From positions 160,001 through 224,000 of the forward strand of contig CAWJTV010000015.1 of assembly GCA_963845755.1 (NCBI GenBank): a DNA stretch of 64,000 nucleotides. Direction: 5' to 3'. Below the pieces are notes generated by a model. It was given only the letters and a program-made list of their open reading frames with translations. It ran no database searches and was not told the DNA's origin. Positions 11,381 through 64,000 of this stretch are shown here, in pieces. Positions within the stretch are counted from its first letter, which is position 1; each line of letters starts with the position of its first letter. This stretch comes from an uncultured Planctomycetota bacterium (GTDB lineage Bacteria; Planctomycetota; Planctomycetia; Isosphaerales; Isosphaeraceae). Made by a program: the position numbers and the translations under genes.

Positions 11381-11471
11381 TCGAAAAAACGTGCCGACCT
11401 GGCGCAGTTCGGGCGAAAACGGAGCATGGAGGGGGAAGGAAGCGAATTTTGCTCAGAAAAGGGGATCGATC

Positions 11472-16271: not shown

Positions 16272-16417
16272 GCCGACGTGGATCTTACCTCCGTGAGAGT
16301 GGCCAGTCGCATCGATCGTTTCAGCGGCAGCGAATCGCCGCCTGCCGAAACGGTCCGGACCGGGCTCGTTCAGCCCCGTTCGGGCGGTGCATGATCCCGC
16401 GAGCCGGAGTCCGCCCC

Positions 16418-17795
16418 ATGTCCCAGACGTCCGTCGTCTTGCCCCCCGCAGGCGTACTCCCTCCTGGGCCCAGGTCGCCGGCCTGGTGGCAGCTCTTCCG
16501 GTTCGCGGGCGACCCGCTCGGACTTCTCGCGGCGTGCCACCGCCGGTTCGGTGACGCCTTCACGCTGGATATCGCCGGCAACGGCCGGTTCGTGATGCTG
16601 TCCGACCCGGAGGCTGTCCGCGACGTCTTCCGCGGCGACCCGGCGGTGCTCCACTCGGGAGAGGCCAACGCGTTATTGACCCCGACCGTCGGGCGGTCCT
16701 CGGTCCTGGTGCTGGACGAGGCCCCGCATGCGCAACAGCGCCGGGTCCTGGTCCCGCCCTTGAAGGGCGAGCGGATGCGCGCGGTTCTTCGACGCCATGC
16801 GGCTGGAGACCCTGGAGGCCGTGCGGGCGTGGCCGCTCGAGACGCCGTTCCCCAGTCTGCCGGCGATGCGACGGATCACGATGCGGGTCATCCTCCGCAC
16901 GGGGCTGGGCCTGGCTCCCGGCCTGGAGATGGACCGCTTCGAGGCCAAGATGGAACGGTTCCTGTCCCAAGGCCGGCAGCGGTACGCCCTGGTGCTGATC
17001 ACGATCATCCCGATCGACCGGCTCAGCGGGTCGCGTTGGGCTCCGCTGTTCCGGCAACTGAGCGACCTGGACGATGACCTGTTCGCGGTCATCACGGCGC
17101 GGCGGCGGGGCGAGCACGGGCCGAGCGGCGAGAACGTGCTCGACGACTTGCTCGCGGCGACGCACGAGGACGGCTCGCCGCTCGATGATCGCGAAGTGCG
17201 CAATGCGCTCATCACGATCCTGATCGCCGGCCACGACACGACGGCGCTCGCCCTGTCCTGGGCGCTGGCCGATATCGTGCCGCGCCCGGAGGTCGTCGAT
17301 CGCCTGGCCGACGAGTTACGCCGGGTCACCGGCGGCGGGCCGCCCGAGGCGGAGCACCTGCCGGCGCTGGAGTACCTCGACGGGGCGATCCGCGAGAGTC
17401 TGCGGCGAAGTCCGGTGGTGCCGTTCGTCGTGCGGAGGACGGTCCAGCCGTTCGTGGCGGGCGGCCGGGAGTACCCTACCGGAGTGGTCCTCTGCCCCTG
17501 TTCGTACCTGGTCCACCGGCGCGCGGACCTCTACCCCGAGCCCGACCAGTTCCGCCCCGAACGATTCCTGAATCGGAAGTTCGGCCCGCACGAGTGGTTC
17601 CCTTTCGGCGGCGGCAACCGGGTCTGCCTGGGCATGCCCTTCGCGCTGTATGAGATGAAGGTCCTGCTCGCGACGCTCTTCAGCCAGGTCCGGCTTGCCC
17701 GCCCACCCGGGGCGCGGTCGCGGGCGAGGCGGTACGGCATCGTCCTGGGGCCGGATGATGGGGCTCGCGTGATCGTTCGGGGATCAAGACTCTAG
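16418..17795 (+). CDS. cytochrome P450 (frameshifted near 16785)
   Basis: AGHDTT I-helix, ESLR, PERF and FGGGNRVCLG heme motif. Confidence 0.92.
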
Positions 17796-19278: not shown

Positions 19279-19504
19279 GGCACACCCCTCAGCGAGTCGG
19301 ATTATTCGATTCCTCTGGCTCCTGAATCTATCCGGAACCGATACGCTCTCACAACTTGCGTTCGAAGGGTTGAGGTCCCTGTACGGGCCAAGGAGGGAGA
19401 GCTCATGATCGCTCGCCGGACGATCGGCCTTGTGAGCACAGGATTCTTTAACAATAATTTAACGAGGCAGATGGAGGTTTTGAGACTGGACGGATGACAT
19501 CGCC

Positions 19505-40483: not shown

Positions 40484-41050
40484 ATGGTCGGAGTGACCCC
40501 GGAACAGGCCCGTGATTTCTACCGCGCCGCGGCGAACTTCCATCGCCAGGAGCCCTGGCGATCGGTCACTTCGAGCGAGACCATCAGGGTGGATTGCGTG
40601 CAACTGGGGGGCGGTCCCTGGTACGCAGTTGTCTTGGGGAAAGAGAGCCGCCTCAGGGGATTGATGCTGTTCGATGTCCAGGAGAGCCCCCTGTTAATCG
40701 GACGCGCCGACTGCGCGACGATCGCCGACCGGCTTCGGAATATCGGTGTCCATTTCGAGGATCGGAAGCAGGTGCGTCCGGAGGAGCTGGCGGCGATCCG
40801 TCGGCACGGGTTTGAGGTGGCCGGTCCGGGTGCCTACCCGCAGTCATTTCGCATGGAACAGCGCCGACGATTCCGATCGCCGGTCGCCTGGGAACTGGAA
40901 CTGCTCGAGGCCTGCCTCTGGACGATCCCCGACTTCCTCGAGCGCGCCAAGGACCGCGCGCCCGATGTCCTGGAATATGCCTTCAAGGGGATGATCGGTC
41001 GGATGACGTTCGATCTCTCGTGGGTCTCTCGGAAAGCTTCGGAAGGATGA
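40484..41050 (+). CDS. hypothetical protein
   Basis: 188-aa ORF; FYRAAANF..QEPW ... WELELLEACL. Confidence 0.65.
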   Translation: MVGVTPEQARDFYRAAANFHRQEPWRSVTSSETIRVDCVQLGGGPWYAVVLGKESRLRGLMLFDVQESPLLIGRADCATIADRLRNIGVHFEDRKQVRPEELAAIRRHGFEVAGPGAYPQSFRMEQRRRFRSPVAWELELLEACLWTIPDFLERAKDRAPDVLEYAFKGMIGRMTFDLSWVSRKASEG

Positions 41051-41066
41051 AGGAGGAGCGCGTGCC

Positions 41067-41705
41067 ATGTCCGAGATTCGAGCGTTGTGGATTGAGGTCG
41101 AGGGAGGGAAAGTCCACTATCGGGTCACGGGGCAAGAGAGCGGCCGACCGGTCGTCCTGCTCCATGGAGCCAGCTTCACGTCGGCGACCTGGGAAGAAAT
41201 TGGCACGTTGGAAGCACTGGCCCAGGCCGGTTATCGCGTCTATGCCTTGGACCTGCCGGGCTTCGGCCAGTCGTCGCCATCGCACGGTTCGGCCCGCACC
41301 TGGCTGAGGATCCTTCTCGACCTGCTGAAGATCGACCGCCCCGTGATTGTCTCGCCGTCGATGAGCGGGCGCTTCTCGCTCCCATTGGTTACCGAGGACC
41401 CCGATCGCGTCTCGGGCTTCGTGGCGGTCGCACCCGTGGGAATTACGAGCTTCGCCAATCAGCTCTATCGGATCTCCGCGCCGGTGCTGGCGATCTGGGG
41501 CCAGAAGGATACCCTCATCCCCCAGGAACAGGCCGATCTGCTGGTGCGGGCCGTCCGGGTCGGCCGCAAGGTCGTCATCCGCGGCGGCAGCCATGCACCC
41601 TACGTGAGCGACCTAAAGACCTTCCACGCGAGATTGCTCGAGTTCCTGGGCGGCCTGCCCGGGAAGGTCAACCATCCCGATCCCGGCCGGCGCCCTGCTC
41701 ATTAA
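41067..41705 (+). CDS. alpha/beta fold hydrolase (ABHD14-like)
   Basis: VLLHGASF, DLPGFG, VSPSMSG and GGSHAPY. Confidence 0.88.
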   Translation: MSEIRALWIEVEGGKVHYRVTGQESGRPVVLLHGASFTSATWEEIGTLEALAQAGYRVYALDLPGFGQSSPSHGSARTWLRILLDLLKIDRPVIVSPSMSGRFSLPLVTEDPDRVSGFVAVAPVGITSFANQLYRISAPVLAIWGQKDTLIPQEQADLLVRAVRVGRKVVIRGGSHAPYVSDLKTFHARLLEFLGGLPGKVNHPDPGRRPAH

Positions 41706-41820
41706 TCCGGCTACTTTCGATGGCCTTGACCGCCTCGCTCGGTCGTCTAACACTGAAGAGGGTGTCTGGACCTTTCGCGTTTCCATCCTCATGCGCTCTG
41801 GGAGCCGGGAAGTGATCGCC

Positions 41821-42522
41821 ATGCAGCCGCTGTGGGTCGTGACTGCCGGGACGCTAGGGCTCGTTCTCGGAGTGGCCTCGTACGGCGACGAGCAGGAGAT
41901 CAAGTTCTCCGACTGCCCCGCCGCCGTGAGGAAGACGTTTGAATCCGAAGGACACGGGGCGAAGATCAAGACCGTCATGAAGGAGACGGATGAAGATAAC
42001 GAGACGATCTACTGGGCCGACGTGACCGTCAAGGGCAAGATGTATGCGGTCGGCGTCCTGGAGGACGGCACACTGACCGAGATGAACCTGGCTCTCGACG
42101 CGGAAGAGCACCCGTTCGACCGTTGCCCGGCGCCTGTCCAGGCGACGTTGCGTCATGAGGCGTTCGGCCAGAAAGTGGGCGACGTCGGCAAGGATATCAA
42201 GTACGGCGTGACGATCTACCAGACCGTCGTCGTTTACCGAGGCAAGTCGTACGAGATCGTGGTCGCCGAAGATGGGACCCTGGTGGAAAAAGTCCTGGTG
42301 ATCGAGGACGAGGAGGTCGAGGTGGACAAGTGCCCCACCGCCGTGCAGGCCACCCTGCGCGCCCACGCCGAGGGCGGGACCATCGGCGAGATTACTCGCG
42401 CCACCGGCATCGGTCAACCCACGTTCGAGGCCGAGATCAAGATCAAGTCCAAGGTCTACCTGGTCGAGATCGCCGAGAGTGGACTCTTGATCTCCAAGTC
42501 GCTCGAGGCCGGCGAGGAATGA
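41821..42522 (+). CDS. secreted PepSY-like repeat protein (three repeats)
   Basis: CPxxV repeated three times, each followed by Y....EDGTL-type endings. Confidence 0.75.
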   Translation: MQPLWVVTAGTLGLVLGVASYGDEQEIKFSDCPAAVRKTFESEGHGAKIKTVMKETDEDNETIYWADVTVKGKMYAVGVLEDGTLTEMNLALDAEEHPFDRCPAPVQATLRHEAFGQKVGDVGKDIKYGVTIYQTVVVYRGKSYEIVVAEDGTLVEKVLVIEDEEVEVDKCPTAVQATLRAHAEGGTIGEITRATGIGQPTFEAEIKIKSKVYLVEIAESGLLISKSLEAGEE

Positions 42523-45476: not shown

Positions 45477-46386
45477 GAGCGCTCGGAAAAAATGAGTTCA
45501 CTGGCCCAGGAGCCTCAAACAGATCAAGGAACATGCTAACTTGAGGAACGCGTCTTGAATCTCGGTGAGCCGATCCAAACGGCGGCGCAGCCGGCCGAAG
45601 GAGTGCAGCCACGCGATGGTCCGCTCTACGTACCAGCGGGACTTGCCCAAACCGCTGCCGTGCTCCGTATTGCGGGCCGCCAGCACCGGCGTGGTCCCCC
45701 GGCCGCGCAAACCCTGCCGCACCGGTTCCGAGTCGTAGCCCCGATCCCCCTGCAAGCGGTCGGGCTTCTGCCGCTTCGGCCCCGGCTTGCCGCCCACCGG
45801 CGGCATGTCGTCGAGCGTCGTGAAGACCTGGGTGATCTCGGGGACGTTGGCGGCGGTCACCGTCGCCGCCAGCGGCACGCCTTGGGCGTCGGTCATCACG
45901 TGGTGCTTGCTGCCGGATTTGCTCCGGTCCGTCGGATTCGGGCCGGTATCCTCGCCCCCTTCCGGGGCCTTGGCGAAGGAGGCGTCGATCAGCGCCCGCT
46001 CCCAGTCGATCGCGTCAGCGCCGTTGCAGCTCGGCCAGCAAGACGGCGTGCAACTGGCGCCAGACACCGGCCTGCTGCCACGCCTGCAGGTAGGACCGGC
46101 AGGTCTTGCCGCAGCCGCAGCCGAGGTCGGCGGGCAAGTCGTCCCAGGCGATGCCGGTCTTGAGCACGAACAAGATGCCGGTGAGGATCTTGCGGTAGTC
46201 CAGGGGTTTGCGTCCCGGGAAGCGGAAGCGGCGCGGAGGCGGGGGTGGCAGCAAGGGCTCCAGGCGCTTGCCACAGCGCATCGGAGACAAGGGGTTTCAT
46301 GGTGGTCCTCCTTCGGTTCGGGAGATCACTCTCCGAAGGACTCAAGAGCAGACAGCGTGCCAGTGGATTCATTTTTTCCGACGCTC
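45477..46386 (-). mobile_element. IS5-family insertion sequence (~910 bp)
   Basis: Terminal IRs GAGCGCTCGGAAAAAATGAGTTCACTGGC / GCCAGTGGATTCATTTTTTCCGACGCTC; TTAA (or TA) duplicated at 45473-45476 and 46387-46390. Confidence 0.92.
45498..46300 (-). CDS. IS5-family transposase (frameshifted)
   Basis: LVSDALW, GILFVLKTGIAW, IDAS, GSKHH, GDRGYDS and RWYVERTIAW. Confidence 0.9.
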
Positions 46387-51036: not shown

Positions 51037-51426
51037 TCAGGTCCCGCTCACTCCCGTGGCCAGCTCGATCAGGTCAGCGATCGAGCGGATCGTCTGCGGC
51101 GCGGCGAGATAACCGATGCCGCGATGCAAGTGCAGCCGGAACTGGCGGGCCAGGACGTCTTCCGAGGTACCCAGCCCATCGCGCTGGCAACGTTCCTTGA
51201 GCAAGGCGAGGTACAGCTCGTGGGCATCGCCGCCGAAGACGGGCCAGCTCATCTCGACATTGCTGTCCGCCGGAACATCCAGCGAGGCCGGTGGCGAGGA
51301 CTGCCGGAGCGACAGGCAGAACGCCCATCGACAGAGCACATTCCAGTGAGGGATGCCCGTCCGGGTCTTGAGACGGATGAGCTGCTCCTTCGCCTGCGTC
51401 GAGAGCTTCACCTGTCGGATACTCAT
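51037..51426 (-). CDS. dndE: DNA sulfur modification protein DndE
   Basis: QVKLSTQAKEQLIRLKTRTGIPHWNVLCRWAFCLSL..SNVEMSWPVFGG..HLHRGIGYL. Confidence 0.92.
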   Translation of the reverse strand: MSIRQVKLSTQAKEQLIRLKTRTGIPHWNVLCRWAFCLSLRQSSPPASLDVPADSNVEMSWPVFGGDAHELYLALLKERCQRDGLGTSEDVLARQFRLHLHRGIGYLAAPQTIRSIADLIELATGVSGT

Positions 51427-51893
51427 CGCCCTCACCGTTGCTAGGAACGTCCAGAATGGTACCAGTTCGGCTGGTCTGGCCCCAGGGCCGTGACCGCCGG
51501 GGACCCGCCGAGGCTGCTGGCAGCGGGCGTGCCAGGTCCATGCCGGCTTGCTTGACGCAACCTCAAGTTTCCGTGGAATTTCGGTCAGAAAGTCGGTGGC
51601 ACAAAGTGGCACTCAATATGATCTTTTGGGAAATGCCCGCTCTTCCACGGTCCTGCCCGATTGGTCGTCGGGGCAGGCCGAGAAATGATGAGCCGATCGG
51701 CCGGCAATCTTGGGACATTCGTTCCGGACTCCGCGCATTCTGGGGGGGCTCCCGGCCCGCCGGCGCCTGCACGTTGGGCCTCTACCTATTAGGATGCCGC
51801 AACTTCGGAAAAACGTTAATGCACCTACGCGAAAAATCGCGGTTTCTCTCGCAGCAACGCGTGATGCGGTCGAGACATAAAAATTTTAAGAAA

Positions 51894-53968
51894 TTATTTT
51901 CGCCGGGGGATCCGTCCGCGACTCGGGCGGCGGATTTGCGCCGGGAGCCCCTCTCCACTCCCGTGTGCCTCCTCCCAGAAGTAGCCCGGCTCCGCGTAGG
52001 TGGCCCGGGTTTCCTCGTCGTAGCGGAGGTGATAGGCCCGGGCGATGTGGGTCCGGAGCGACTGATAGTAATGCCGGTTGACCTCCGTGTCGGTCGAGAG
52101 GATCAGCACCTGGTGGCTGGCGTTGGGGAAGTAGCGTTCGATCAGGTGGCGGCGGTGAGCGGCGTCGAGCCGGGCCATCGGCGTGTCGATGATCGCCGGC
52201 AGGGGATGGGCCGATGCGCGGGCCAGACCCCACAAGACCGAGATGGCGAAGATCTGCTTCTCGCCTTCAGATAACCGCTCCCGGGGCAGGGCATGCCCGG
52301 CCTGGTTGAAGAGGGTGATGGCGAACGTCGTGGGATCGATCTGGATCCGTTCGACCAGGCTCTGCTTGCGTAGGAGGTACCGGAACGATTCGGTGATCAG
52401 GTCGGAGAGACGGTCGATCTTCCGTTCGGTCGCCCGGGTCAGGAACTCCTGCATGACGACCTGGGTCCTGGCGGCGACCCGGGTCATCCGCAGGCGATCG
52501 TCCTGGGCGTCCTCCTCGTTCGCTTGCCGCACCTGGATCGCACGTAACTTCTCCGTCCGGGCCTCCCGTTCCGCACGACGTTCCGCGATCGTCCGGTCCA
52601 GTTGTCGGGCCTCTTCGTGGACCGTTCCCAATCGCTCGGACGACGCCCGAAGCCGATTGAGGAACTGGCGGATCGCCTCGTCCTCGACTGTGATCGAATC
52701 GTCGCGATCCACCTCCTTGAACTGCGCGGTCCAGGTCCGATCGCCGATCCATCACACTCGCGGCATCCCGACGCAATTCCGAGAGCCGTTGTCCCCGGAG
52801 GTTGTGGAGCAGGGACCGGGCGCCCGGCGCCAGGAGGAGCCGTGCCTCAACGTCGTGAGCCGCCCCGGTGCGCGATTCTCGGTCCCGGGCGAGATGCGTC
52901 TTGACCTTCCTCACGACGGCCGGCGCCGTCTCCAGCTCGGCGAGCAAGGCGAGAACCTTCTCGTCGCGCTCGTCGAGCAGGCGCCGGATGACCTCGGCCT
53001 CGGCCGCTTCCGTCTCGCGCTTGTCCTGGTCCTCGACGGCTTCGAGCAGGTCGCCGACCAGGCAGAGCGGCAGCTCCGTGGCGGCCAGGGCGACGAGCTG
53101 CGCGTCGCACGCGCGGACCTCCTGGGCGAGTCCTTCCTTCCGGCGCTCGCGGTCCCCGCGCTTCTCCCAGTGCCGGCCCCCCGCCGCCTGGAACTCGTCC
53201 TCCAACCGTTCGTAGTCGGCCTTCGCTCGCAGCACGACGTTCTCGTGCTCGCTGCGCCTCGTGTTCAGGGCAGCGATCTCCTTGCGTAGGTCCTCGATCT
53301 CCCGCGCGAGCCCGGCCCGATCCTCGCGCGGTTTGCTGGCCTCGGCGCCTCGGGCGGCCAGCCGCGTTTCGAGGACGGCGGCGTCGGCGATCAGCCGCTC
53401 GGCGATATCGAGGCCCAGAAGCGATTTGACGGCCGTCCCCAGCACCTGGCTGCTGGTCTCATCCTCGGCGAGCGATCGGATCTTCTCCGCGTCGAAGAAG
53501 AAGAGCTGGGAGACCTCCAGCGGGAAGAAATCCTCCACGAGCTGGCCCCAGTGCTCCGAATGCCAGCGATCGTGCAGACCGTCCAGCGAGACCTGGAGCT
53601 CCTCGCGCACCTTCTTGCCCTGCACGCTCCAGAACCGGCTGACATCATAGACGTGCTCCTCCCCGCCGGCTGCATGGCGGAACGTCAGCGAGACGCCCGC
53701 CCCTTCCGCGCCGCCGACCCCATGGTGGATCGACTGACGGAGGAACTCGTCATACCCCAGGTTGGCCCGCTTCGAACACCGCGCAGGGTGCCATAGAGCG
53801 CGACCTGGATCGCGTCAAGCAGCGTGGTCTTCCCGGCGCCGTTGGTGCCGCCGAACAGGACGATCGGCCGCATGCCGGCGTTCCGGGGTGCGGGCGCGGA
53901 GTCAGGTCAAAAGATTGTTCGCCGCGGTAGAGACCGAAGTTCCGCAACGTCACGCGTTCGAGGATCAT
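51894..53968 (-). CDS. dndD: DNA sulfur modification protein DndD (SMC-like ATPase), frameshifted
   Basis: LRNFGLYRG, GGTNGAGKTT, LFFFDAEKI, LSEGEKQ, IIDTPMARLD and QVLILSTDTEV. Confidence 0.92.
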
Positions 53969-54016
53969 TATGGTCTCGCCGGTCGGTGGTAGGGCGTCCA
54001 GAACCTTGTCTACTCG

Positions 54017-54260
54017 GTGTTCCCAGGGTGCGCCTTCGGCGACCCTGGGCTTTGATGTGCAACGCCTTTGGCGTAGGGATCATCGCGGGTGCCCTCGTGT
54101 TCCCAGGGTGCGCCTCGGCGACCCTGGGCTTTGATGTGCAACGCCTTTGGCGTAGGGATCTGGCGTTTCCTTTGATGTGCACCGCCTTCTGCGTAACGAC
54201 CCGGCGTTTCTTGACCCCAACGGGTCGGACAACAAAGCCCAGGGTCGCCGAAGGCGCATC
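54017..54260. repeat. REP/MITE-like array (two direct copies, one partial, one inverted) between dndC and dndD
   Basis: gtgttcccagggtgcgcc(t)tcggcgaccctgggctttgatgtgcaacgcctttggcgtagggatc at 54017 and 54097. Confidence 0.85.
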
Positions 54261-54275
54261 CAGCGACGGTGCTCG

Positions 54276-55789
54276 CTAATCGCTACTCTTTTCAAAGAAA
54301 ACCATCTGCCCACTCTCCCCGACTTCATCCGGGTCTTTCAACCGCTTCAACCGCTGATCCCGTTCTGTGAGGACCGCGAACGCTTCTTTCTCATCCTCGA
54401 ACACCGCCGCCTTGAGGCACTTCTCCAGCGCCTCGATGACGCCGACACGCCGGGTCATTCCCCGGAACTTCTGTTCGACCCCGAGGAGTGCGACCTGGAG
54501 GTCGAAGAGGACCTCGTCTCCCTCGCAGACGTCGCGGAGCAGCTCCCAATCGTCGGACCGGAGCGTATTGCCCTCCTCCCGCGGCCTGGGGAATTCCTCG
54601 CCGGTCACCTCCTGGTAGATCCTCGGCAGGCTGTCGTCGAACTCGTGCTTCTCGTGCAACCAGAGCCGGCGGATCTCGTCCAGTTCCTCCAGGCTGATGA
54701 GCTGGATCTCGCGGAACTCCTTCGGTCCCTCCCGGCGTGCGCTCTGCTGGGCTTCGAGCACCCGACGGAGCCAGTATTCGCGCGCCTCCTTCTTGTACGG
54801 GCCGGGGATCGTCCCATCGTGCCAGAGCTGGACCTGGCCGTTCATCCGCCGGAAGTCGCGCTTGTCCTTGTCGGGCTCGCCGAGCTCGTTGCGCAGCTCG
54901 AGGAGCGGCGTCATCCAGACTTTTTCTTCGTCGTTCTTGATCATGGCCTCCATAGAGCGGTCCTTGTCGACGACCGTGCAGACCCAGCACCCGAACCGGC
55001 TGCTGCCGCAACTGGGGGTCGAGCTATCGACGACCAGCGGGCATTCGCCCCCCTCGGTGGCCCCTTGATACATCCCCAGCAGCGACTTGTTGTCGTGGCC
55101 CCACGGGTTCTTGACCTGCATGAGGAACAGCCAGACGTCGTCGTTGTTCCAGTCCTCGATCGGCGTATAGACGAGCGAATTCGGCAGGCTGGCGTTGGGG
55201 ACGAGCCGGTCGCGGACCCGACGCTCGGCGTGCTTCTCGATGGTGATGGCCCGACGCTGGCTCTCGGCCTTGCGAGTGCCGAGGACGAGGATGGCCTCGC
55301 CATACTCCTGCACGACCCCGCGGATGAACGCATTCGACGGCTTGATCTTGAGCCGCTCGGTGCACCATCGAAACTTCTGATTCGGGGCCGGGTAACCACG
55401 CCCGATCAGGTTCACCCAGAACGAGTTGGCGATCTCGGGCGTGAGCTTGTGCGGGTGGATCGGTAGCTCCTGCTCGCGCGCCGCGGCGCGCATGCGGTCG
55501 AGCGAGGTCTCGACCCACTTCGCGACGACCGGTTGTTCGACCATCGTATCGGTCGAGATCACGTGAATCGCCTTCGTCCGCTCGGCGGCCGGCAGCTTGC
55601 GGATGGCCAGCCAGACGAGCTGGAGGGTCGCGCTCGAATCTTTACCACCGCTATAACCCACCACCCAGGGAATCGCGTCGGCGAGATACAACTCGCGAAT
55701 CTCGGCGCACACGGCCTCGACCGTCCTGGCCAGGCCCACGCGCGGAAGGCGGAAGGCGGTCCGGCAGGCTTATTAGACGACCTGGCCAT
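54276..55789 (-). CDS. dndC: DNA phosphorothioation protein DndC (PAPS-reductase-like, Fe-S); N-terminus frameshifted near 55740
   Basis: YSGGKDS, FWVNLIGRGYPAP, RWCT and GECP..SCGSSRFGCWVCT. Confidence 0.93.
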
Positions 55790-56873
55790 TGCGGTTCCTT
55801 CGGAATTGGGTTTCCAATTCCTGTTCGTCATCGGTGAGCTTGAGACCGAGGTGCTTTTTGATGGCATTGCCGGTAAGACCGACATTGATCAACCGCTTCG
55901 AGAGCCTCCCTGTGGTCATCGCACGGCCCTCCCAGAGCGCCGCGTTGCTCCGTGACCAGTCGAGCGATTCCAGCCTGGCGAGTTTCCGCTTCCAATCCTT
56001 GGGATGCTCGGCGCATAGCGCACTGCCGGCCCTGGCAATCGCGGCGAGAGCGAGAGTATGGGCGTGGATGTAATCCCGTCGGAGATCCGCGGCGCTGACC
56101 TTCCGCTCCTTGGCGAGTTGCCAGTCCGGCATTCGCTTCGCCACCTCATTCCAGAACTCGGCGGCGATTGCAGCCCTGGCTTCGATCGCGTCATCGGCGT
56201 GGTCGGCTAACAGGATGCGAGTCGCCTGATAGATCCCGCTCAGTGTGAACAGCTTGATCGATCGATTCGAAATCGTGCTTCTCTCCGTTTCCGTGAGATC
56301 CGTGAACACCGACACGCGTTGCATGAGGATCTTGGCGACCTGGGCGTCTTCGTCGCGATGGTCGTAGACGATGCTGAGCGATGTTGTCGGCCGGATTGCG
56401 TAACGGTTGAGATCGGCGAACATCTGCTGGCAACGCTTCAGACCAACGTCCATGAAGAAGACGACCGCGATCGTCTCATCCCCCAATTCGGGATTGTCCC
56501 GCAGCGCCCCTTCGATACCCGCCCGGCGGTGTTGGCCGTCGTTGATGACGAACCGAGCCGACATGGGAATCCGGAGCTGGCCGACATTGTTTTCCGGTCC
56601 CCCGGGACCAAAGGGCTCAAACGTAATCTCTCCATCGATCGAGGCGGTCAAGGCGGAGAAGGTGTAGTCTCGGGGGTGCTGCACGATGTAGCGGGCAATC
56701 TCCGGCACACGGGTCTTGTTCAGGATCCGCTGAGCACGTAGCTCCGGCTTCAGCTCATCCTCGTCGAAGAGGAAGATCCGTGGGATGAGCCTCAACGGGC
56801 ACATCGAGACGTAATAGGCCCGCCCGGCTTGGATCCCGCGAATCGCTGGAAAGATGTATTCGAAGGTCGCCAT
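55773..56873 (-). CDS. dndB: DndB DGQHR-domain regulator
   Basis: FPAIRGIQAG, RAQRILNKTR, INDGQHR, QQMFADLN and SIKLFTL. Confidence 0.93.
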   Translation of the reverse strand: MATFEYIFPAIRGIQAGRAYYVSMCPLRLIPRIFLFDEDELKPELRAQRILNKTRVPEIARYIVQHPRDYTFSALTASIDGEITFEPFGPGGPENNVGQLRIPMSARFVINDGQHRRAGIEGALRDNPELGDETIAVVFFMDVGLKRCQQMFADLNRYAIRPTTSLSIVYDHRDEDAQVAKILMQRVSVFTDLTETERSTISNRSIKLFTLSGIYQATRILLADHADDAIEARAAIAAEFWNEVAKRMPDWQLAKERKVSAADLRRDYIHAHTLALAAIARAGSALCAEHPKDWKRKLARLESLDWSRSNAALWEGRAMTTGRLSKRLINVGLTGNAIKKHLGLKLTDDEQELETQFRRNRNGQVV

Positions 56874-56892
56874 AGGATTGTGGACGGCCAGA

Positions 56893-56953
56893 GTTGGAAG
56901 TCAATTAATAGACTTCCAACACACTACACTTGACTTCCAATTGCGTCAATTGG
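56893..56953. promoter_or_regulatory. operator-like element upstream of dndB (copy 1)
   Basis: GTTGGAAGTC-N8-GACTTCCAAC, a third GACTTCCAA 21 bp later, then CGTCAATTGG. Confidence 0.7.
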
Positions 56954-57252
56954 GCAGCTTGGAGGCCCTGTCGCCAAGCCGCGGTCTCGCGGGGTGGTGA
57001 CGGTCGCTGGGCCAAGCCGAGTGCATCTGTCCCGAATTGTCGGGTTGAACTTAAATCGTTTGCTATTGACGGGTTGTGAAACGAGAGATATAACAGGTCC
57101 CGGGATTGACGCTCGAAACCAAAGATCGGAGAGAGGGCTCGATTCGGACTCGGCGATCCACCGCGCTGGAAGTCAAACGAGGTCTCCACTCGGAGCATCC
57201 ATTCGAGCGCTTAACTTTTGCATGGCGCACGCCCTATGGCCCCGCGAGTTCA

Positions 57253-57345
57253 CCCCCCGGAACCCCCCCTTCGCAAGGGGGGGACAAGAAACGGGCTTTT
57301 TCCGATCAATATCCCCCCCTTGCGAAGGGGGGGTTCCGGGGGGTT
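57253..57345. repeat. REP-like palindrome (CCCCCCTTCGCAAGGGGGG pair)
   Basis: accccccggaaccccccctt..aagggggg ... ccccccttgcgaagggggggttccggggggt. Confidence 0.75.
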
Positions 57346-57396
57346 TTTCGGGAACAGGCTTCGAGCGTGTGCAACCCAACTGTGAGGCGCTCTGGA

Positions 57397-57458
57397 AGAA
57401 CCTGGTCAAGATCAATCAGGCCGGGGGAAGTGACCCATGTCCACGATCACACCGACTC
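57397..57458 (+). repeat. Uma2 leader repeat, copy 1 (other copies at ~58387-58458 and ~59183-59254)
   Basis: agaacctggtcaaga.caa..aggc.gggggaagtgacccATGtccacgatcacaccgactc. Confidence 0.85.
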
Positions 57459-58053
57459 CACCGATGACGAATTCGTACTGGATCCCCGCGCCCTGCATCG
57501 TTTGACGCTCGACGAATACGAAGCGATGGTCAAGTCTGGTATCCTGACGGCTCGGGATCGGGTGCATCTCATCAACGGATGTCTGGTGGAGAAGATATCA
57601 CATAGTCCAGCCCATGCGTGCGTCAACGAAATCTGTGGCGATACCCTTCGCGCTCTCTTGCCCCCAGGCTGGTCATTGCGAGGCGCGAAGCCCGTGCGAA
57701 TCCCGAGACCCAGACCGGAAGCGGATAGCGAGCCGGAACCGGACCGGTGCATCGTCAGGGGCACCACCCGGGATTATGAGGATCAGCATCCGGAGCCCGA
57801 GGACGTCGCGCTCGTCGTCGAGGTATCCAGGTCCAGCCTGGCGGAAGATCGCAAAATGGCAGGCATATACGGCCGCGCAGGGATACCGGTCTACTGGCTG
57901 ATCGATGCCGTGAACCGCCAGATTGAGGTCTACTCCCAACCCGGCCCGGGTGGTTACACGGTGATGGACGTGCTCGCGCCGGGGCATGTCCTGACCCTCG
58001 TTATCGACGGCGCCGAGGTGGGCCAAATCCCCGTGGAGGACATCCTGCCCTGA
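57437..58053 (+). CDS. Uma2 (DUF820) family endonuclease, copy 1 (frameshift near 57492)
   Basis: LTLDEYEAM, SEPEPD, LVVEVS and YGRAGIPVYWLID. Confidence 0.88.
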
Positions 58054-58120
58054 TCACTTCCGGGGGGCGGTCCGGAGAGCCTTCGATGTCCCAGGTCTTG
58101 AAGTTGCTGGAGACCAACTT

Positions 58121-58330
58121 ATGATCGACCTACCGACCATTGACGAGCTGCGTGAGACCCGTCGTCGCCTGGCAGAACAATCGGGGCTGGACGTCCAGCG
58201 CTACGCGGCCTTGCTACAGCAGTCCGTGCCGAGGTCAGCCGGCCCCTACGTGTCCACGCCGCTTCTGCCCCAACCGATGTCCCCGTTCCGTCAGTCGTCT
58301 GACCTCGAACCCGAGCACGCCGGGGCCTGA
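58121..58330 (+). CDS. small hypothetical protein
   Basis: 69 aa, PTIDELRETRRRLAEQSGLDVQRY; GGAG RBS. Confidence 0.6.
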   Translation: MIDLPTIDELRETRRRLAEQSGLDVQRYAALLQQSVPRSAGPYVSTPLLPQPMSPFRQSSDLEPEHAGA

Positions 58331-58435
58331 TTATTTGGCCCGGGTCGTTGTGACTGCGTACCGTGTCCGCGAGAAGGGAGGCGGGACGTGACGGAGAACC
58401 TAGTCAAGACCAAGAAGGCAGGGGGAAATTGACCC

Positions 58436-59146
58436 ATGTCCACGATCACACCGACTCCGTCGATGCCGCTGCCGGAGGAACCGACGTCCGCCGCGCCATT
58501 CATCCCGGTTTCCGGCGACAAGAGGACGCTCATTCCGGGCGTTCCCTGGGAGACCTACCGCACCCTGTCCGAATCAATCGGCGAGGGCGAACATGTCCGA
58601 CTGGCCTATGACGGGAAGGACCTGGAGATCACGACCGTCGGCAATATCCACGAGATGGTTAAAGGGTTGACCGGCGACGTCGTTCATGAGGTGGCGGCGG
58701 CCCTGGACGTCGATTATGTGGCGTGCGGCGAAACGATATGGGACGCTCCGCCCCGGGGACTCCAGGCCGATCTGTCGTACCACTTCGACGCCGGGAAGAT
58801 CCGGATCGCCAGGGAAGCGGCGGCCCGCGGCTCGAAGGAACCGAGCGACGATCCCCATCCCGATATGGCGGTCGAGATCGACATGTCGCCTCCTCAGAAC
58901 GACCGGCCTGCAATCTACCGGGACCTCCGCGTTACCGAGGTCTGGCGACTGGTCAGGCTCGAGAAGCTCATGATCGAGCAACTCCAGCCGGATGGTTCCT
59001 ACGCCGCGGTAGCGGAGAGCCGGTTCCTGCGGATTCCACCCGAGGATCTTCTCCGCTGGGTGAAAGAGGGGCTCGCCGAAAGCCGACCCGCCTGGACCCG
59101 TCGCTTAAGACAGTGGGCCGCGGCGTTGGGCCAACATGCCCCCTGA
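58436..59146 (+). CDS. Uma2 family endonuclease, copy 2 (divergent subfamily)
   Basis: GVPWETY, RLAYDGKDLEI, GLQAD, PDMAVEID and IYRDLRVTEVWR. Confidence 0.88.
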   Translation: MSTITPTPSMPLPEEPTSAAPFIPVSGDKRTLIPGVPWETYRTLSESIGEGEHVRLAYDGKDLEITTVGNIHEMVKGLTGDVVHEVAAALDVDYVACGETIWDAPPRGLQADLSYHFDAGKIRIAREAAARGSKEPSDDPHPDMAVEIDMSPPQNDRPAIYRDLRVTEVWRLVRLEKLMIEQLQPDGSYAAVAESRFLRIPPEDLLRWVKEGLAESRPAWTRRLRQWAAALGQHAP

Positions 59147-59232
59147 TCGCCTCCCGGGAGGCGGTCCAAGAAGAGAAACGGCACGTGACGGAGAACCTGG
59201 TCAAGACCAAGAAGGCAGGGGGGAAGTGACCC

Positions 59233-59872
59233 ATGTCCACGATCACACCGACTCTAACGATGCCGCAGCCGGCGGATCCGGACTGGGTACCCGAGCCGCT
59301 GGGTCGCTTGACGTTGGACCAATACGAGGCGATGGTCGAATCCGGCATCCTGACGGCCCGCGACCGGATGATGCTCATCAACGGGTGTTTGGTGGAGAAG
59401 ATGACACACAGCCCTCCCCATGCGGTCGCCGATGAGCTGCTGCGGCGACGCGCTCCGACCCCTCTTGCCGGCGGGCTGGTCGTTGCGGACAGCCAAGCCC
59501 ATCCGGATCCGTAGGCCGGCCCCGGAACGGGACAGCGAACCGGAACCGGACCGGTGCATCGTCAGGGGCACCACGCGGGATTACGAGGATCAGCATCCGG
59601 AGCCCAAAGACGTCGCAGTCACCGTCGAGGTATCCAGGTCCAGCCTGGTGCTCGATCGCAAGATGGCTGGCATCTCTGGACGGGCCGGCATCCCCACCTA
59701 CTGGCTCATCGACGCGGTCAACCGCCAGGTCGAGGTCTATTCCCAGCCTGGGCCGTCCGGTTACGGGGCCATGGAAGTGCTCGCGCCGGGACATGTCCTG
59801 ACCGTCATCATCGACGGTGTTGCGGTGGGCGAAATCCCCGTCGCAGACATCATGCCACGCGAACGGCCCTGA
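59233..59872 (+). CDS. Uma2 family endonuclease, copy 3 (close paralog of copy 1; frameshift near 59440)
   Basis: LTLDQYEAM, SEPEPDRCIVRGTTRDY and GIPTYWLID. Confidence 0.88.
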
Positions 59873-59970
59873 CTCCTTCCGGCGGTCCCGCTTTGGCCAT
59901 GGCAAGCACGCCGACGTCGAAATCTTGGCGATCGCATCTTGAGCCAACCCGGTGTGATAGGCTATGGTGA

Positions 59971-60028
59971 TTGGAAGTCGAACAATGACTTCCAAAGTCA
60001 ACACGGAAACTTCCAACTCGTCAATTGG
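59971..60028. promoter_or_regulatory. operator-like element upstream of dndA (copy 2)
   Basis: TTGGAAGTC-N7-GACTTCCAA, AACTTCCAA 21 bp later, then CGTCAATTGG. Confidence 0.7.
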
Positions 60029-60068
60029 CGGATCGGAGATTCCGCAACATCTCCCGGAGGCTCGCTCC

Positions 60069-61212
60069 GTGAGACCGATTTACCTCGACTACAACGCGAC
60101 AACCCCGCTCGACCCGCGAGTCTTCGAGGCCATGCGGCCCTACTATCTGGCGGAGTTCGGCAATGCCGGGAGCCGGACCCACCTCTACGGCAACCAGGCC
60201 AGGGACGCGGTGGAACTTGCCCGAGCCGCGATTGCCGCACTCCTCGGCCGAAGGCCGGAAGAGGTCGTGTTTACGAGTGGCGCGACCGAGAGCAATAACC
60301 TCGTCTTGCTCGGCCTGATGGCCCATGGTCTGGGTTCCGGTCGAACCCACGTACTGGCTTCCAGCATCGAGCACAAGTCCGTCCTGGCGCCCCTGGAAAA
60401 GCTCCGGTCGGCCGGTTTCGAGGTCGAGTTGTTGCCGGTGACGGACGGAGGCTATGTCGATTCGGAAGAGGTCCGTCGTCGGTTGCGCGAATACGCTCCT
60501 TGTCTCGCTTATGCACGCCAACAATGAGACGGGCGTTCTCCAGCCCGTGCGCGAGGTCGCCGGTCTCATGGCTGACTCCCGTACGCTCTTTCACGTCGAC
60601 GCCGCGCAGACGTTCGGCAAGCAGGTGGACGAATTACGCCAGCTCGACTGCGATTTCCTCGCGATCAGCGGCCACAAAATCTATGGACCGGCCGGCATCG
60701 GGGCGCTTTGCATCCGACGTTCCCGACTCCACCGGACGGCGCTCGAACCGATTATGAGAGGCGGCGGTCAGGAAAGAGGACTCCGGCCCGGCACGCTCCC
60801 CGTTCCCTTGATTGTGGGACTCGGCGCCGCGGCCGAACTGGCGGGGCGGGAGCACGGGGCACGAACCGCCCACGCCGCGGGATTGAAGCGGGAGCTTCTG
60901 ATCGCCCTGGATGCCGTCCCCCATCGAATCAATGGGGATCTTGCCAGGATGCAACCTCATGTCCTCAACGTCAGCTTTCCGGGCGTGCAAAGCGAGGCGC
61001 TCATGCTGGCCTTGCGGTACGAGATGGCAATCTCCAACGGCTCCGCCTGTACGTCGTCCAGCTATTCGACGAGCCATGTCTTGCGAGCCATGGGCCTGTC
61101 GGAGAGCCGGATCGAAACGGCGGTCCGGTTTTCCTGGGGGCCGGGCGTGGACTCGATCCCAGTCATGGCCCTGATCGAAGCGGTCAGGAAGCTGACGTGC
61201 TCGAGCTCTTAA
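60069..61212 (+). CDS. dndA: cysteine desulfurase DndA/IscS type (frameshift near 60490; start could be 59985)
   Basis: YLDYNATTP, FTSGATE, HVDAAQ, SGHK and SNGSACTS; dnd context. Confidence 0.88.
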
Positions 61213-61319
61213 CGTTTGAGTCGCGCACGAGCAGCACCAAGCCGACGCGCATCCTGAAGTGATACGAGAGGGGGAGGGTGACGGAGTGTGATTGGCCCCG
61301 AAGTCGCAGATGTCCTCCG

Positions 61320-61510
61320 ACGGCCTGAAGGGCCGCAGGAACCCAGCCCGGGGAGAATCCCGGGAATGGGTCGCACCGCAAGTCCTCCGTGCACCCGGAA
61401 GGGGTGCCGGAGCCGGTTCCTGCGGCCTTTCAGGCCGCCGGAGGTCTGGGGTATGCCGCGGACCCCGGGTTTTCACCCGGGGCTGGGCTTCTGCGGCCCT
61501 TCAGGCCGCC
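61320..61510. repeat. REP-like inverted repeats (cggcctgaagggccgcag.a.cccagccc type)
   Basis: One forward and two reverse-complement copies. Confidence 0.75.
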
Positions 61511-61633
61511 GGTGATAGGCTATCCTTAGTGATTGCAACCCATCCGTTAAGTGCTCTAGACTTTGCTCGACCGCCTTGGGGATGACGGGCAATTGCTGGG
61601 ACGCGATCGGAACGAATCTCGGAAACATTGACC

Positions 61634-62740
61634 ATGGCCGGCTTCGAGCTTCACCTACCGGCGATCCGCGGCAAGCAAGCGGGACGCGAGTTCTTCCTCA
61701 TCATGTGTCCCCTCGCGGTCCTCCCGCGCCTTTTTCGCTCGGAAGATGAGGATGTCCAGCCCGAACTCCAGGCCCAGCGGGTCCTGATCCGGAGCCGGGT
61801 CCCGGAGATCGCCCGCTACATCACGGATAATCCCGACTCTTACGTCCTGTCCTCGATCGTCGGCTCGGTCGACCGCGAGGTTCGCTTTGAGCCGGTCCCT
61901 GGCCAGGCCGGGGCGTCAGGGATGGGCACCCTGACGCTGCCGATCGCCGCCCGTTTCCTGATCCACGACGGCCTCCACCGCCGCGCCGCCATCGAAGCCG
62001 CCCTTCGTCTCAAGCCCGAACTCGGTGAAGAGACCGTCTCGCTCGTCCTGTATGTCGACCCGGGCTTCCAGCGATCGGAGCAAATCTTCTCGGACCTGAA
62101 ACGCCACGAATCGCGCTCGTCGCGCTCGCAGGGAATCCTCTGCGATAACCGCGACGAAATGGCCCTCATCACCAAGGAGCTGATCAAGAGGGTGGATGTC
62201 TTCGAAGGCATGACCGAGATGGTCCGGAGCAAGATCTCGAACCGCTCGCTCAAACTGTTCACGCTGAGCGGGATTTACCACGCGACGGAGACGCTCCTCT
62301 CCCAGAAGCCGAAGGCCCCGTTCGCCGAGAAGCTTGCCCTGGCGACGCAGTTCTGGACCGAGGTGGCGAACCAGATCCCGGACTGGAGCCGCGCCAAGCG
62401 TCGAGAGATCAGTCCGGCCGACTTGCGGGCATGGTGTGTCCACTCACACGCGATCGCGTTGGCGGCCTTGGCACGGGCGGGGCGATCTCTGCTGGAGATC
62501 GACCGAGACAAATGGCGAAAGCGTCTGGCACCGCTCCGGAAACTCAACTGGCTCCGGTCGAACCGGCAGCTCTGGGAGGGTCGAGCCATGATCGCAGGCC
62601 GCCTGTCCAAGTCGAATATGAATGTGTTGCTCACGGGCAACGTCATCAAACGGCAGTTGAGGCTGCCGCTGACGCGTGAAGAGCAGGGGGCCGAAGAACG
62701 TCTGACGACACCGACGTTGGATAAGAGCCCGAAGCGCTAG
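61634..62740 (+). CDS. dndB: second DndB-family protein with DGLHR variant motif
   Basis: LPAIRGKQAG, QAQRVLIRSRVPEIARY, HDGLHR, ISNRSLKLFTLSGIY and WEGRAM; aligns end to end with 55773..56873. Confidence 0.85.
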   Translation: MAGFELHLPAIRGKQAGREFFLIMCPLAVLPRLFRSEDEDVQPELQAQRVLIRSRVPEIARYITDNPDSYVLSSIVGSVDREVRFEPVPGQAGASGMGTLTLPIAARFLIHDGLHRRAAIEAALRLKPELGEETVSLVLYVDPGFQRSEQIFSDLKRHESRSSRSQGILCDNRDEMALITKELIKRVDVFEGMTEMVRSKISNRSLKLFTLSGIYHATETLLSQKPKAPFAEKLALATQFWTEVANQIPDWSRAKRREISPADLRAWCVHSHAIALAALARAGRSLLEIDRDKWRKRLAPLRKLNWLRSNRQLWEGRAMIAGRLSKSNMNVLLTGNVIKRQLRLPLTREEQGAEERLTTPTLDKSPKR

Positions 62741-62791
62741 CGAGTGAATTCCGCCGGAGTCCATCCATTCACTCGCTAGCGGGTCGGGCTC
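62725..62791. repeat. REP-like hairpin between convergent genes (possible terminator)
   Basis: gagcccga..cgctagcgagtgaat ... attcactcgctagcg..tcgggctc. Confidence 0.7.
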
Positions 62792-62824
62792 GTATGAGCC
62801 GTCGCCAACCCAACGTTCGACGCT

Positions 62825-63735
62825 CTAGCCGGATCCCAGGAACTTCTGCCTCCGATGCCAGTCGAGATACGCTGGGTCGGGGTAGAGCGACGAATCGTTG
62901 GGCAACCGGATCTTCTGCCCATGATACTCGGCGAGCGGCTTCTGGTCGGGGCTGTCTTCGGCGAAACAGTCGCGAGCGACGATGACCGTGAAGTCGTCCG
63001 CGATCGTCCAGAGCCCGTTATCGAACATCCAGTGGGCGTTTCGGCAAAGAGCGATGCCGTTCCGGACGTCGTTATTCCGCGAATCCGAGAACTGGTGGAT
63101 ATGGGCCGCGTCGATGAGCGTGCTCGACGAGACGGTCATGATCCGGTAGCCGGTCAGGGCACACGCATAGTTGTACGTCGGGACAACCTGGAGCCGGAAT
63201 CGGGCTTCCCGGCCCTTCTGCGTCGCATCCTCCGGCGCATGGTGCTGGGAGGCACTGACAACCTGGTCCTCGTTCGGAACCGGGATGCCCAGGAGAGCGC
63301 AAAGACCCGGCCACTCGTCGTTCGGGAAATACTTGCAGATCAGAACCCGGGCGCCTCGTCCCGAAAAGCCGCGTCCTTCAGGCATGCCTCGAAGTCGGGA
63401 TTGAGTTCGGCAAACCTTGCCAGGCGACGATCGGGCGCGGGCTTGCCGTTCTCGCCTACGGCCTTCCAGCAGCCGTCGCTCTGCAAGTGGTAGAACGGGA
63501 AGCGCACGTCGGGAGCCTGCGTCCGGCGTTCCGCGACGACGTACCAGTACGAACAAAACTGGAAGGCCAACTCGGGCGTCAGAGGCATGACCTTCTCGGG
63601 TAAGCGAGCTTGTTCGGCGAGCTCCATGATCGCGAGGAGAAGCAGCGGCTTGTGCGGTGCTGGGTTGCCCTTGGCCCAGTCAACTCGCAGTTTCCCGAGC
63701 TTTGACAGCCATCGCTCTCGCGTTATCGCATCCAT
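62825..63735 (-). CDS. SBD-HNH endonuclease (phosphorothioate-reader-type restriction nuclease family), frameshift near 63350
   Basis: N-terminal APHKPLLLLA ... RFPFYHLQSDGCW; C-terminal CALTG..AAHI..NGIALCRNAHWMFD..LDWH. Confidence 0.8.
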
Positions 63736-63832: not shown

Positions 63833-64000
63833 TTACGTCACAGTTATCTCGTCAGGCGCGGCTTCATAGCCCTCTTTCTCCCTGGCCTGCCGGATCCGCT
63901 CGATCAGCGCCGGCAGGTGCGGCCCAAGCCACTCTTTATTGTTCCCAGGAAACAGCCTGATTCGCCAATGACGAAACCTCTCGCCTCGCCCACCAATCTT
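63833..64000 (-). CDS. 3' end of a hypothetical protein running in from beyond the window
   Basis: Open frame ...WLGPHLPALIERIRQAREKEGYEAAPDEITVT*. Confidence 0.4.
   Translation of the reverse strand, partial: KIGGRGERFRHWRIRLFPGNNKEWLGPHLPALIERIRQAREKEGYEAAPDEITVT

Follow-up and report, generated by a model that had tools for sequence, protein, structure and literature searches.

A solitary Dnd locus of an Isosphaeraceae bacterium with a dnd-linked SBD-HNH nuclease, two DndB lineages and a conserved candidate operator

Introduction

DndFGH is the usual partner module of DndABCDE, the proteins that write DNA phosphorothioation (PT). About half of the dnd clusters are without this module (615 of 1349 dndBCDE clusters; Tong 2018, cited in PMC6435447), which raises the question of their restriction partner. 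Here we describe such a solitary locus in an uncultured member of the Isosphaeraceae (Planctomycetota). It occupies positions 51037-63735 of the window, i.e. the stretch of 64,000 nucleotides analysed here (contig C15, positions 160001-224000), and combines the dnd writer genes with a gene for a nuclease composed of a sulfur-binding domain (SBD) and an HNH domain, a second dndB gene and three genes of the Uma2 nuclease family.

Nucleases have been reported beside dnd clusters before. HNH, uma2 or unclassified nucleases were found near 63 of 651 solitary dnd systems (Tong 2018, cited in PMC6435447), and for 698 taxa the Dnd locus was described to contain nucleases with wHTH(SBD), SAD and HNH domains, with DndFGH present in just 197 of these taxa (PMC10853773). 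The latter study proposes these embedded HNH nucleases as alternative restriction components or suicide effectors, and both ideas, an HNH and a Uma2 partner, are already in print as hypotheses (PMC6435447 citing Tong 2018; PMC10853773). Characterised two-domain SBD-HNH enzymes are PT-dependent cutters with dnd clusters near fewer than 3.6% of their homologs (PMC7461809), and the paradox of a PT cutter beside a PT writer is raised in PMC7461809 and PMC10853773. Our literature searches found no tested dnd-embedded SBD-HNH enzyme other than Bsp48385I (PMC7461809). DndI (PMC11662687) and SspE (PMC9646914) are unrelated nucleases that sense the PT of their own host. Regarding regulation, DndB of Salmonella binds to its own promoter at two TACG-N10-CGTA palindromes (PMC4507180).

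Results

An SBD-HNH clade linked to dnd genes

Dnd writer loci of the type described here are common in Planctomycetota. The locus lies in a genome, G000, of 14.27 Mb in 49 contigs (87.9% complete). Planctomycete-specific families encoded in the window (PSCyt1, PSD1 and DUF1501) indicate Planctomycetota, and the named relatives of its loci, which are Isosphaeraceae and Singulisphaera MAGs (metagenome-assembled genomes), place it in the Isosphaeraceae. Pfam, PADLOC and NCBIfam profile scans of the open reading frames (ORFs) between positions 51037 and 64000 recovered all genes named in the initial annotation of the window at the expected places: dndE, dndD, dndC and dndB1 on the minus strand, three Uma2 genes, dndA and dndB2 on the plus strand, and SBD-HNH on the minus strand, convergent to dndB2. 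That description had missed at least five frameshifts, an insertion between dndD and dndE, and a helicase-HNH gene beyond position 63735. SBD-HNH itself (62825..63735, minus strand) is present in two pieces, which cover positions 3-86 and 156-283 of NF045808 with 94.2 and 29.4 bits and encode an N-terminal SBD and a C-terminal HNH domain (PF13391 HNH_2, 46.3 bits against a cut-off of 21).

To place the locus among its relatives, 121 genomes of the family were searched for dndC, which is present in 23 of them; 20 kb around dndC were taken from 20 of the 22 relatives, and the window proteins were compared with these loci by tblastn. Full-length SBD-HNH genes occur in 19 of the 121 genomes, and dndC accompanies them in 11 of the 19 compared to 12 of the other 102 genomes, counts that come from kin and are therefore not independent. 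Where both genes are present, SBD-HNH adjoins dnd in nine of the 11 genomes (G000 and eight relatives), and it stands beside dnd in seven of the 20 relatives' loci, plus G031. Five of these 20 loci contain a distant dnd type (DndC about 41% identical). The remaining ones follow a common plan: SBD-HNH is convergent with a dndB2-type gene, dndA lies upstream of that dndB, and dndC-dndD-dndE are divergent from dndA.

The association is also found outside the family. A pattern scan of public genomes yielded 511 SBD-HNH relatives. Among the best 80 loci, 33 carry dndB, dndC, dndD or dndE within 10 kb, a minimum count in view of short contigs among them and of queries taken from planctomycete proteins. 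The planctomycete plan is seen in 11 of the 33. In 22 of the 80 loci, dndC is located directly upstream on the same strand, so that there the nuclease is made together with the writer. These loci belong to Verrucomicrobiota, Nitrospira, deltaproteobacterial and other MAGs. Two annotated examples have DndC matches of 387 and 396 bits, above the curated cut-off, and SBD-HNH starts 3 nt after dndC in one of them and overlaps it by 34 nt in the other (NCBIfam); genes for a DGQHR_dnd_1 protein and a NifS/DndA come next. In MAGs of Abditibacteriaceae and Nitrospira (L073:8637-16865 and L074:8636-18305), members of the clade directly follow dndC and precede genes for a HerA/VirB4-like ATPase, a DGQHR_dnd_1 protein and a convergent NifS/DndA.

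The evidence that this SBD-HNH clade is dnd-linked is clear, and the linkage is among the new items of this analysis. Position, co-occurrence and the place directly after dndC in other phyla support a coupling of the nuclease to the writer. Across several phyla, a PT writer and a nuclease of a family known only for destroying PT-DNA are kept side by side.

Domains and conserved residues of the nuclease

The sister genome G046, which belongs to the same genus and shares about 95% DNA identity with G000 across the locus, encodes an intact SBD-HNH ortholog of 303 amino acids that is 90-97% identical to the two window pieces. It matches SBDHga (PDB 8h0l; phmmer, E 2.5e-5) as well as the HNH enzyme TagI, and intact orthologs match NF045808 end to end. 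An AlphaFold model based on 81 homologs (pLDDT 88.6), which replaced a first model based on six sequences (pLDDT 62.5), consists of two domains (residues 1-155 and 168-303) and leaves no room for an SRA domain. Foldseek matched the SBD to 8h0l, 7ccd and 5zmo with target-normalised TM-scores of 0.72, 0.60-0.67 and 0.56, respectively (probability 1.0 each). In the ranking, 8h0l comes before the SBDs of SprMcrA and ScoMcrA and the HNH enzymes TagI and VcaM4I.

The sulfur-cavity residues reported for SBDHga (H25, K26, L75, P76 and H79; PMC10602919) align to H28, K29, F/Y79, P80 and H83 of the protein described here. Across the 81 sequences, H28 and P80 never vary, and conservation of K29 and H83 is at least 90%. 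In the HNH domain, H212 and N226 are likewise invariant, with H235 conserved in at least 90%. Judged by these residues, the nuclease looks competent. A predicted complex of DndB2 and SBD-HNH gave no support for an interaction, a result that counts neither for nor against one.

The 3' 525 nt of SBD-HNH (62825-63349) are identical in G000 and G046 while the neighbouring genes differ, and the synonymous divergence (pS) varies from 0.04 to 0.40 along the locus. This mosaic pattern suggests recent recombination within the locus.

Two DndB lineages in one locus

The canonical dndB1 (55773..56873, minus strand) lies upstream of dndC, and dndB2 (61628..62740, plus strand) follows dndA and is convergent with SBD-HNH. 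Both genes are intact and exceed the TIGR03233 cut-off of 328 bits (524.3 and 406.7 bits, respectively). The two proteins share 50% identity, and dndB2 has a ratio of nonsynonymous to synonymous divergence (pN/pS) of 0.03-0.25. Among the 20 relatives' loci, 12 have a dndB2-type gene (after dndA or beside the HNH gene), six have a dndB1-type gene in front of dndC, and four have both, as does G000. A Planctomycetia MAG and two contigs of G005 carry both types as well.

A tree was calculated from 17 unbroken DndB rows; frameshifted DndBs or high-scoring segment pairs shorter than 320 amino acids were dropped, among them the DndBs of G046, G036, G032, G026, G025, G010 and G011. The four copies in front of dndC, including dndB1, form one clade with 100/100 support, and the copies after dndA or beside the HNH gene fall apart from it. 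As the tree separates the proteins by position, the two DndBs are old lineages with fixed positions and not the product of a recent duplication. Their presence in one locus is a new detail: our literature searches yielded no report of a cluster with two DndB paralogs. The loci of G026, G041 and G025 represent a further rearranged form, with dndB1, dndC and a dndB2-like gene on one strand and no dndD or dndE match within the 20 kb taken.

A conserved palindrome as candidate DndB operator

Each of the two dnd operons of the locus carries a copy of a palindrome of the form GGAAGT-N9/10-ACTTCC. One copy, GGAAGTCAATTAATAGACTTCC, is located at 56896..56917 and precedes the start of dndB1 by 23 nt. 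Two operator-like sites adjoin each other at the head of dndA (59973..60014), namely GGAAGTCGAACAATGACTTCC with perfect arms at 59973-59993 and AAGTCAACACGGAAACTTCC with imperfect arms at 59995-60014. The strict pattern occurs three times in the 14.27-Mb genome, twice in this locus. Since a relaxed pattern with one mismatch per arm matches the genome about 20 times per Mb as background, only the strict one was used for counts. Scanning 112 sequences gave 23 strict matches in 21 of them, all within dnd clusters and nearly always in the divergent dnd promoter. The clusters concerned stem from 17 genomes (16 besides G000) of Isosphaeraceae, Pirellulaceae and Planctomycetaceae; the relatives' loci are L032-L049, L054, L077, L084, L087, L141 and L142.

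DndB is the obvious candidate binder because the geometry is the same as that of the Salmonella DndB box, and by this analogy the palindrome is likely a DndB operator. The conserved candidate operator is another new detail. In G005, two adjacent copies are situated between dndB1 and dndA, which fits an Uma2 insertion having split an ancestral palindrome pair in G000.

Writer genes and missing partner modules

The intact dndC (54276..55739, minus strand) encodes a PAPS-reductase-like sulfurtransferase (673.4 bits on TIGR03183, cut-off 290.4). The genome has a single copy of the gene, with a pN/pS of 0.12 against G046. The SMC-like ATPase gene dndD (51894..53968, minus strand) is split into three frame pieces, whose ORFs cover positions 1-27, 113-411 and 423-659 of the PADLOC DndD model PDLC02668. 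On TIGR03185, the C-terminal piece alone reaches 247.9 bits (cut-off 245.85), and the other pieces cover positions 1-27 and 111-398. For dndE (51037..51426, minus strand; PF08870, 135.7 bits; TIGR03184, 117.4 bits, cut-off 71.85) translation truly starts at the ATG at 51424-51426, and the longer ORF up to 51612 is upstream read-through; the alignment of the relatives' DndE begins at about residue 62 of this long ORF. Between dndD and dndE lies a non-coding insertion of about 0.5 kb (51427..51893), which is not found in G046; in the alignment of the two genomes, 555 nt of G000 are matched by 45 nt of G046. The insertion includes a dispersed short repeat (about 51770-51911), and the segment gave 65 genome-wide blastn matches. 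On the plus strand, the cysteine desulfurase gene dndA (59964..61212) is present in two pieces covering positions 1-137 and 137-353 of TIGR03235, the best model for both (173 and 286 bits; neither alone reaches 480). Only from residue 37 of the ORF onwards does the conserved core extend, and the true start of dndA is uncertain.

The initial annotation had stated that neither DndFGH nor a Pbe system is encoded in the window, and this also held for the surroundings. The three families TIGR03236, TIGR03237 and TIGR03238 ('dnd_assoc_1-3' in NCBIfam), which we take to stand for DndF, DndG and DndH, had no match in the whole 14.27-Mb genome at its completeness of 87.9%; none of 14 control genomes was positive either. 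Hence, the usual partner of DndABCDE has no family match in this genome. PADLOC detected no DndF/G/H or PbeB/C/D in the next 20 kb (ORFs of at least 150 amino acids), nor, apart from the dnd genes, between positions 40433 and 51441 of the window (ORFs of at least 170 amino acids). The only PbeC matches were dndD itself, with scores below those of its DndD-model matches, and a PbeA match of 67 bits covered only the helicase core of the neighbouring helicase-HNH protein, which also had weak helicase-level matches to type IV restriction endonucleases (REases). No pbe gene set was found beside dnd in a Pbe scan limited to the flanks and the locus.

The Uma2 array as a genus-specific insertion

Three genes for PD-(D/E)xK nucleases of the Uma2 family (PF05685, threshold 27 bits) are located on the plus strand between the two dnd operons: Uma2-1 (57437..58053; 82.3 bits), Uma2-2 (58436..59146; 29.9 bits, and 73.6 bits on PADLOC PDC-S17) and Uma2-3 (59233..59872; 56.4 bits, from profile position 60). 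The start of Uma2-1 was set by a leader and ATG common to all three copies (repeat families D3-D5). Uma2-3 is a paralog of Uma2-1, with direct repeats D1/D2 of 77-79% identity.

The initial annotation had offered this array, next to the second DndB and SBD-HNH, as a possible effector or regulatory arm of the PT system. The position of three nuclease genes between two dnd operons speaks for that role, as do the listing of the related families PDC-S03 and PDC-S17 as defence candidates in PADLOC and the occurrence of uma2-family nucleases beside solitary dnd clusters (Tong 2018, cited in PMC6435447). Nevertheless, we consider it very improbable that the array is the restriction or effector arm. 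Uma2 genes are found beside dnd in only one of the 20 relatives' loci, that of the same-genus G046, and a Uma2 match is present in one of the 80 closest public SBD-HNH loci. The family has 68 matches in the genome, including several other tandem groups. Moreover, pN/pS against G046 is 1.09 for Uma2-1 and 0.51 for Uma2-2 compared to 0.03-0.28 for the dnd genes, which shows that the Uma2 genes are under relaxed constraint. In our interpretation, the array was inserted into the divergent promoter region of the dnd genes in this genus only; the segment with Uma2-3 and dndA is missing from G046. Thus, of the three suggested partners, whose recurrence beside dnd in relatives the initial annotation had named as its test, SBD-HNH and DndB2 recur and Uma2 does not.

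Frame breaks in the assembly

At least five frameshifts affect the 12.7-kb locus. They are located in dndD (near 52712-52723 and between 53625 and 53790, with up to four indels against G046), dndA (one, near 60485-60495), Uma2-3 (near 59439, an indel against G046) and SBD-HNH (one, at about 63351, a 1-nt gap against G046); dndC, dndB1, dndB2, dndE, Uma2-1 and Uma2-2 are open. Essential genes of the genome are broken in the same way, with about five breaks in 13 kb: rpoB (C34:79366-83015) has one shift and spans two frames, rpoC (C34:567489-571586) has two and exits and re-enters its frame, and gyrA (C11:955092-957483) and a uvrA on C33 are split once each. Split Pfam domains were likewise detected in other genes of the window (Pkinase, WD40, P450, PSCyt1 with PSCyt2-PSD1, and abhydrolase; sites 11352-12882, 12780-14910, 16220-17792, 19484-21885 and 41007-42519).

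Single-base indels break different genes in G046, where dndB1 and dndB2 are disrupted, both intact in G000, and dndD (an uninterrupted ORF of 675 amino acids) and SBD-HNH (303 amino acids) are intact. Between the two genomes, the SBD half of the nuclease has a pN/pS of 0.26, and values of 0.03-0.28 were obtained for dndB1, dndB2, dndC, dndE and the dndD pieces. At eight of the 11 break sites examined in the locus and the essential genes, GCGC occurs within a few bases (genome rate 7.95 per kb), often within GCGCAG/CTGCGC. This clustering suggests a systematic consensus error at one motif, which is perhaps a modified one.

Because essential genes show an equal density of breaks and different genes are broken in G046, the frameshifts in dndD, dndA, Uma2-3 and SBD-HNH are most likely assembly errors, and the affected genes are therefore probably intact in the organism. 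If the frameshifts were real, the locus would be a decaying, non-functional PT system. The number of breaks, with up to four indels in dndD alone, the insertion between dndD and dndE and the existence of decayed dnd clusters in relatives agree with such a decay; given the break density in rpoB, rpoC, gyrA and uvrA, the reciprocal pattern of broken and intact genes in G046, the low pN/pS values and the breaks at GCGC, we regard it as unlikely. Apparent pseudogenes in an assembly so rich in frame errors should not be trusted at face value.

Genomic surroundings

Directly upstream of SBD-HNH and on the same strand lies the 3' end of a helicase-HNH gene (63836..64000, minus strand; entire gene C15:223836-226409), which encodes a protein of 853 amino acids with ResIII/Helicase_C and a C-terminal HNH domain; the locus hence extends beyond position 63735. 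The gene was rejected as a conserved dnd partner, as it is not beside dnd in any of the 20 relatives. Approximately 10 kb past the dnd locus, a fragment of Shedu SduA was detected (C15:233642-234163; PADLOC SduA, 148.9 bits), and the region with these two genes looks like a defence island. On the other side, a DDE_Tnp_1 transposase ORF (45501-46325) is located at a distance of about 5 kb to dndE. In G046 and G033, too, transposases (IS21 and DDE) flank the dnd loci. Four relatives carry genes for an MTES_1575 REase of about 770 amino acids with a ResIII helicase on the dndB2 side of the cluster (L033:13057-15360, L042:10934-13192, L040:7878-10259 and L038:1372-3699), which match PADLOC type IV REase models with 153-188 bits and are separated from dnd by a HIT-domain gene in two cases. 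The spacer between dndB1 and Uma2-1 contains a perfect 33-nt inverted repeat (57252..57344; 100% complementary) composed of two C7-TTCGCAA-G7 hairpins, with homopolymer lengths that differ between G000 and G046. An ORF in the same region (orf97, 56905-57198, minus strand) was not counted as a gene: it has no family match, and its similarity to G046 does not exceed that of the underlying DNA.

Discussion

Own marks or foreign marks

Whether SBD-HNH is functionally coupled to the host's own PT appears evenly balanced to us. A competing explanation, tentative in our view yet to be taken seriously, is that the protein is an autonomous type IV PT-dependent enzyme that acts on incoming DNA with PT in a non-host context, neither reads nor depends on the marks of its host and merely travels with the dnd island. 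Members of the family are PT-dependent cutters, and differing sequence contexts have been proposed for their coexistence with dnd (PMC7461809). The defence-island look of the region, with helicase-HNH next door and SduA further on, points in the same direction.

Several observations weigh against coupling. Eight of the 19 family genomes with full-length SBD-HNH are without dndC; five of these keep dnd remnants within 10 kb and three (G014, G112 and G040) have SBD-HNH alone. Open SBD-HNH frames stand beside decayed dnd clusters in G030, G034, G039 and G110, of which only dndE and/or dndD fragments remain. Keeping the nuclease without a writer fits an autonomous type IV enzyme. In Planctomycetota, SBD-HNH is convergent to dndB2 and not co-transcribed with it. 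Intact orthologs reach 124.7 and 130.0 bits on NF045808, below its cut-off of 180 bits, and every characterised SBD-HNH enzyme cuts PT-DNA (PMC7461809). With regard to the rest of the locus, a role of the Uma2 genes is possible in light of the uma2 nucleases near solitary dnd clusters elsewhere (Tong 2018, cited in PMC6435447), binding of DndB to the palindrome is deduced from position and analogy only, and dndD, dndA or SBD-HNH may be true pseudogenes, as a search of public sequencing runs found none with the locus and the frames were judged from assemblies.

On the other side, the type IV explanation has to account for the 22 of 80 loci in which SBD-HNH directly follows dndC on the same strand, nearly touching or overlapping it in the two cases checked, and for a linkage to dnd of 33 in 80 compared to less than 3.6% for the homologs of characterised enzymes (PMC7461809). 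The best structural match, SBDHga, is sequence-promiscuous (PMC10602919), which gives no sign of a narrow choice of sequence, a specificity that was not analysed for the protein described here. Retention of SBD-HNH beside decayed clusters and in dnd-free genomes further implies that it is not lethal without PT and that the writer is not needed to retain it. This fits a PT-activated self-sensing effector as well as a type IV enzyme directed against foreign PT patterns, and argues against the classical scheme in which PT protects self from the nuclease.

Proposed function of the locus

As the best explanation, we propose that the locus works as follows. DndA would mobilise sulfur, and DndC, DndD and DndE would install PT at a sequence motif. 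The dndC-dndD-dndE and dndA-dndB2 operons are transcribed in opposite directions from a common regulated promoter region, where DndB1 and/or DndB2 might bind the palindromes and limit transcription of both. SBD-HNH would be coupled to the host's own marks and serve as a PT-reading nuclease arm in place of DndFGH, so that its position beside dnd would not be that of an unrelated neighbour. To this arrangement, the genome described here has added the canonical dndB1 before dndC and, in this genus only, three tandem Uma2 paralogs; the latter would be passengers and were inserted into the divergent promoter region in such a way that each operon retained its own copy of GGAAGT-N9/10-ACTTCC.

More speculatively, and with considerable doubt, the dndB2-type gene and SBD-HNH may together be a conserved PT-reader module that completes a 'solitary' Dnd writer. 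SBD-HNH would then attach to the host's own PT, or be regulated by it, and cut unmarked or differently marked invaders; it would sense self in the manner of SspE or DndI, yet by means of an SBD. Via one operator, the two DndBs would separately set the levels of the writer (dndB1-dndC-dndD-dndE) and of sulfur supply and reader (dndA-dndB2 and SBD-HNH). Such a module would amount to a complete defence system for which there is so far no experimental precedent. With five writer genes, one reader of 303 amino acids and a defined candidate operator, the lineage offers a compact testable case, and it includes natural variants that have or lack the second DndB, dndA or the Uma2 insert. Taken together, the overall interpretation in the initial annotation, a PT system with non-canonical partners, is partly supported, and the idea itself is not new.

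Comparison with described systems

The locus resembles the Dnd loci with SBD(wHTH)+SAD(SRA)+HNH nucleases (PMC10853773) in having a DndABCDE writer without DndFGH and a PT-binding HNH nuclease in the locus. It differs in that the protein, according to the model, has two domains, SBD and HNH, in 303 amino acids without room for an SRA domain, and in that its gene is convergent to dndB and not downstream of the modification genes. The architecture and SBD fold are those of SprMcrA, EcoWI and Ksp11411I (PMC7461809; NF045808), and the HK and aromatic-P...H residues of the sulfur cavity as well as the HNH motif of SBD-HNH type IV enzymes are conserved. In contrast to the NF045808 enzymes, the proteins described here score 125-130 bits against the cut-off of 180, their clade is dnd-linked in 33 of 80 loci compared to less than 3.6%, and their function is a predicted one.

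As in the dnd clusters of Streptomyces lividans and Salmonella (PMC4507180), dndA is divergent from dndB-dndC-dndD-dndE, and there is a palindromic promoter box with a spacer of about 10 nt in two copies. The box itself reads GGAAGT...ACTTCC instead of TACG...CGTA, a second DndB lineage follows dndA, and three Uma2 genes split the promoter region. Finally, SspE and DndI (PMC9646914; PMC11662687), single-protein readers of the host's own PT that accompany a writer without DndFGH, represent the model proposed here for SBD-HNH. Unlike these two NTPase-coupled proteins, SBD-HNH has no NTPase domain and no sequence or domain relationship to either of them.

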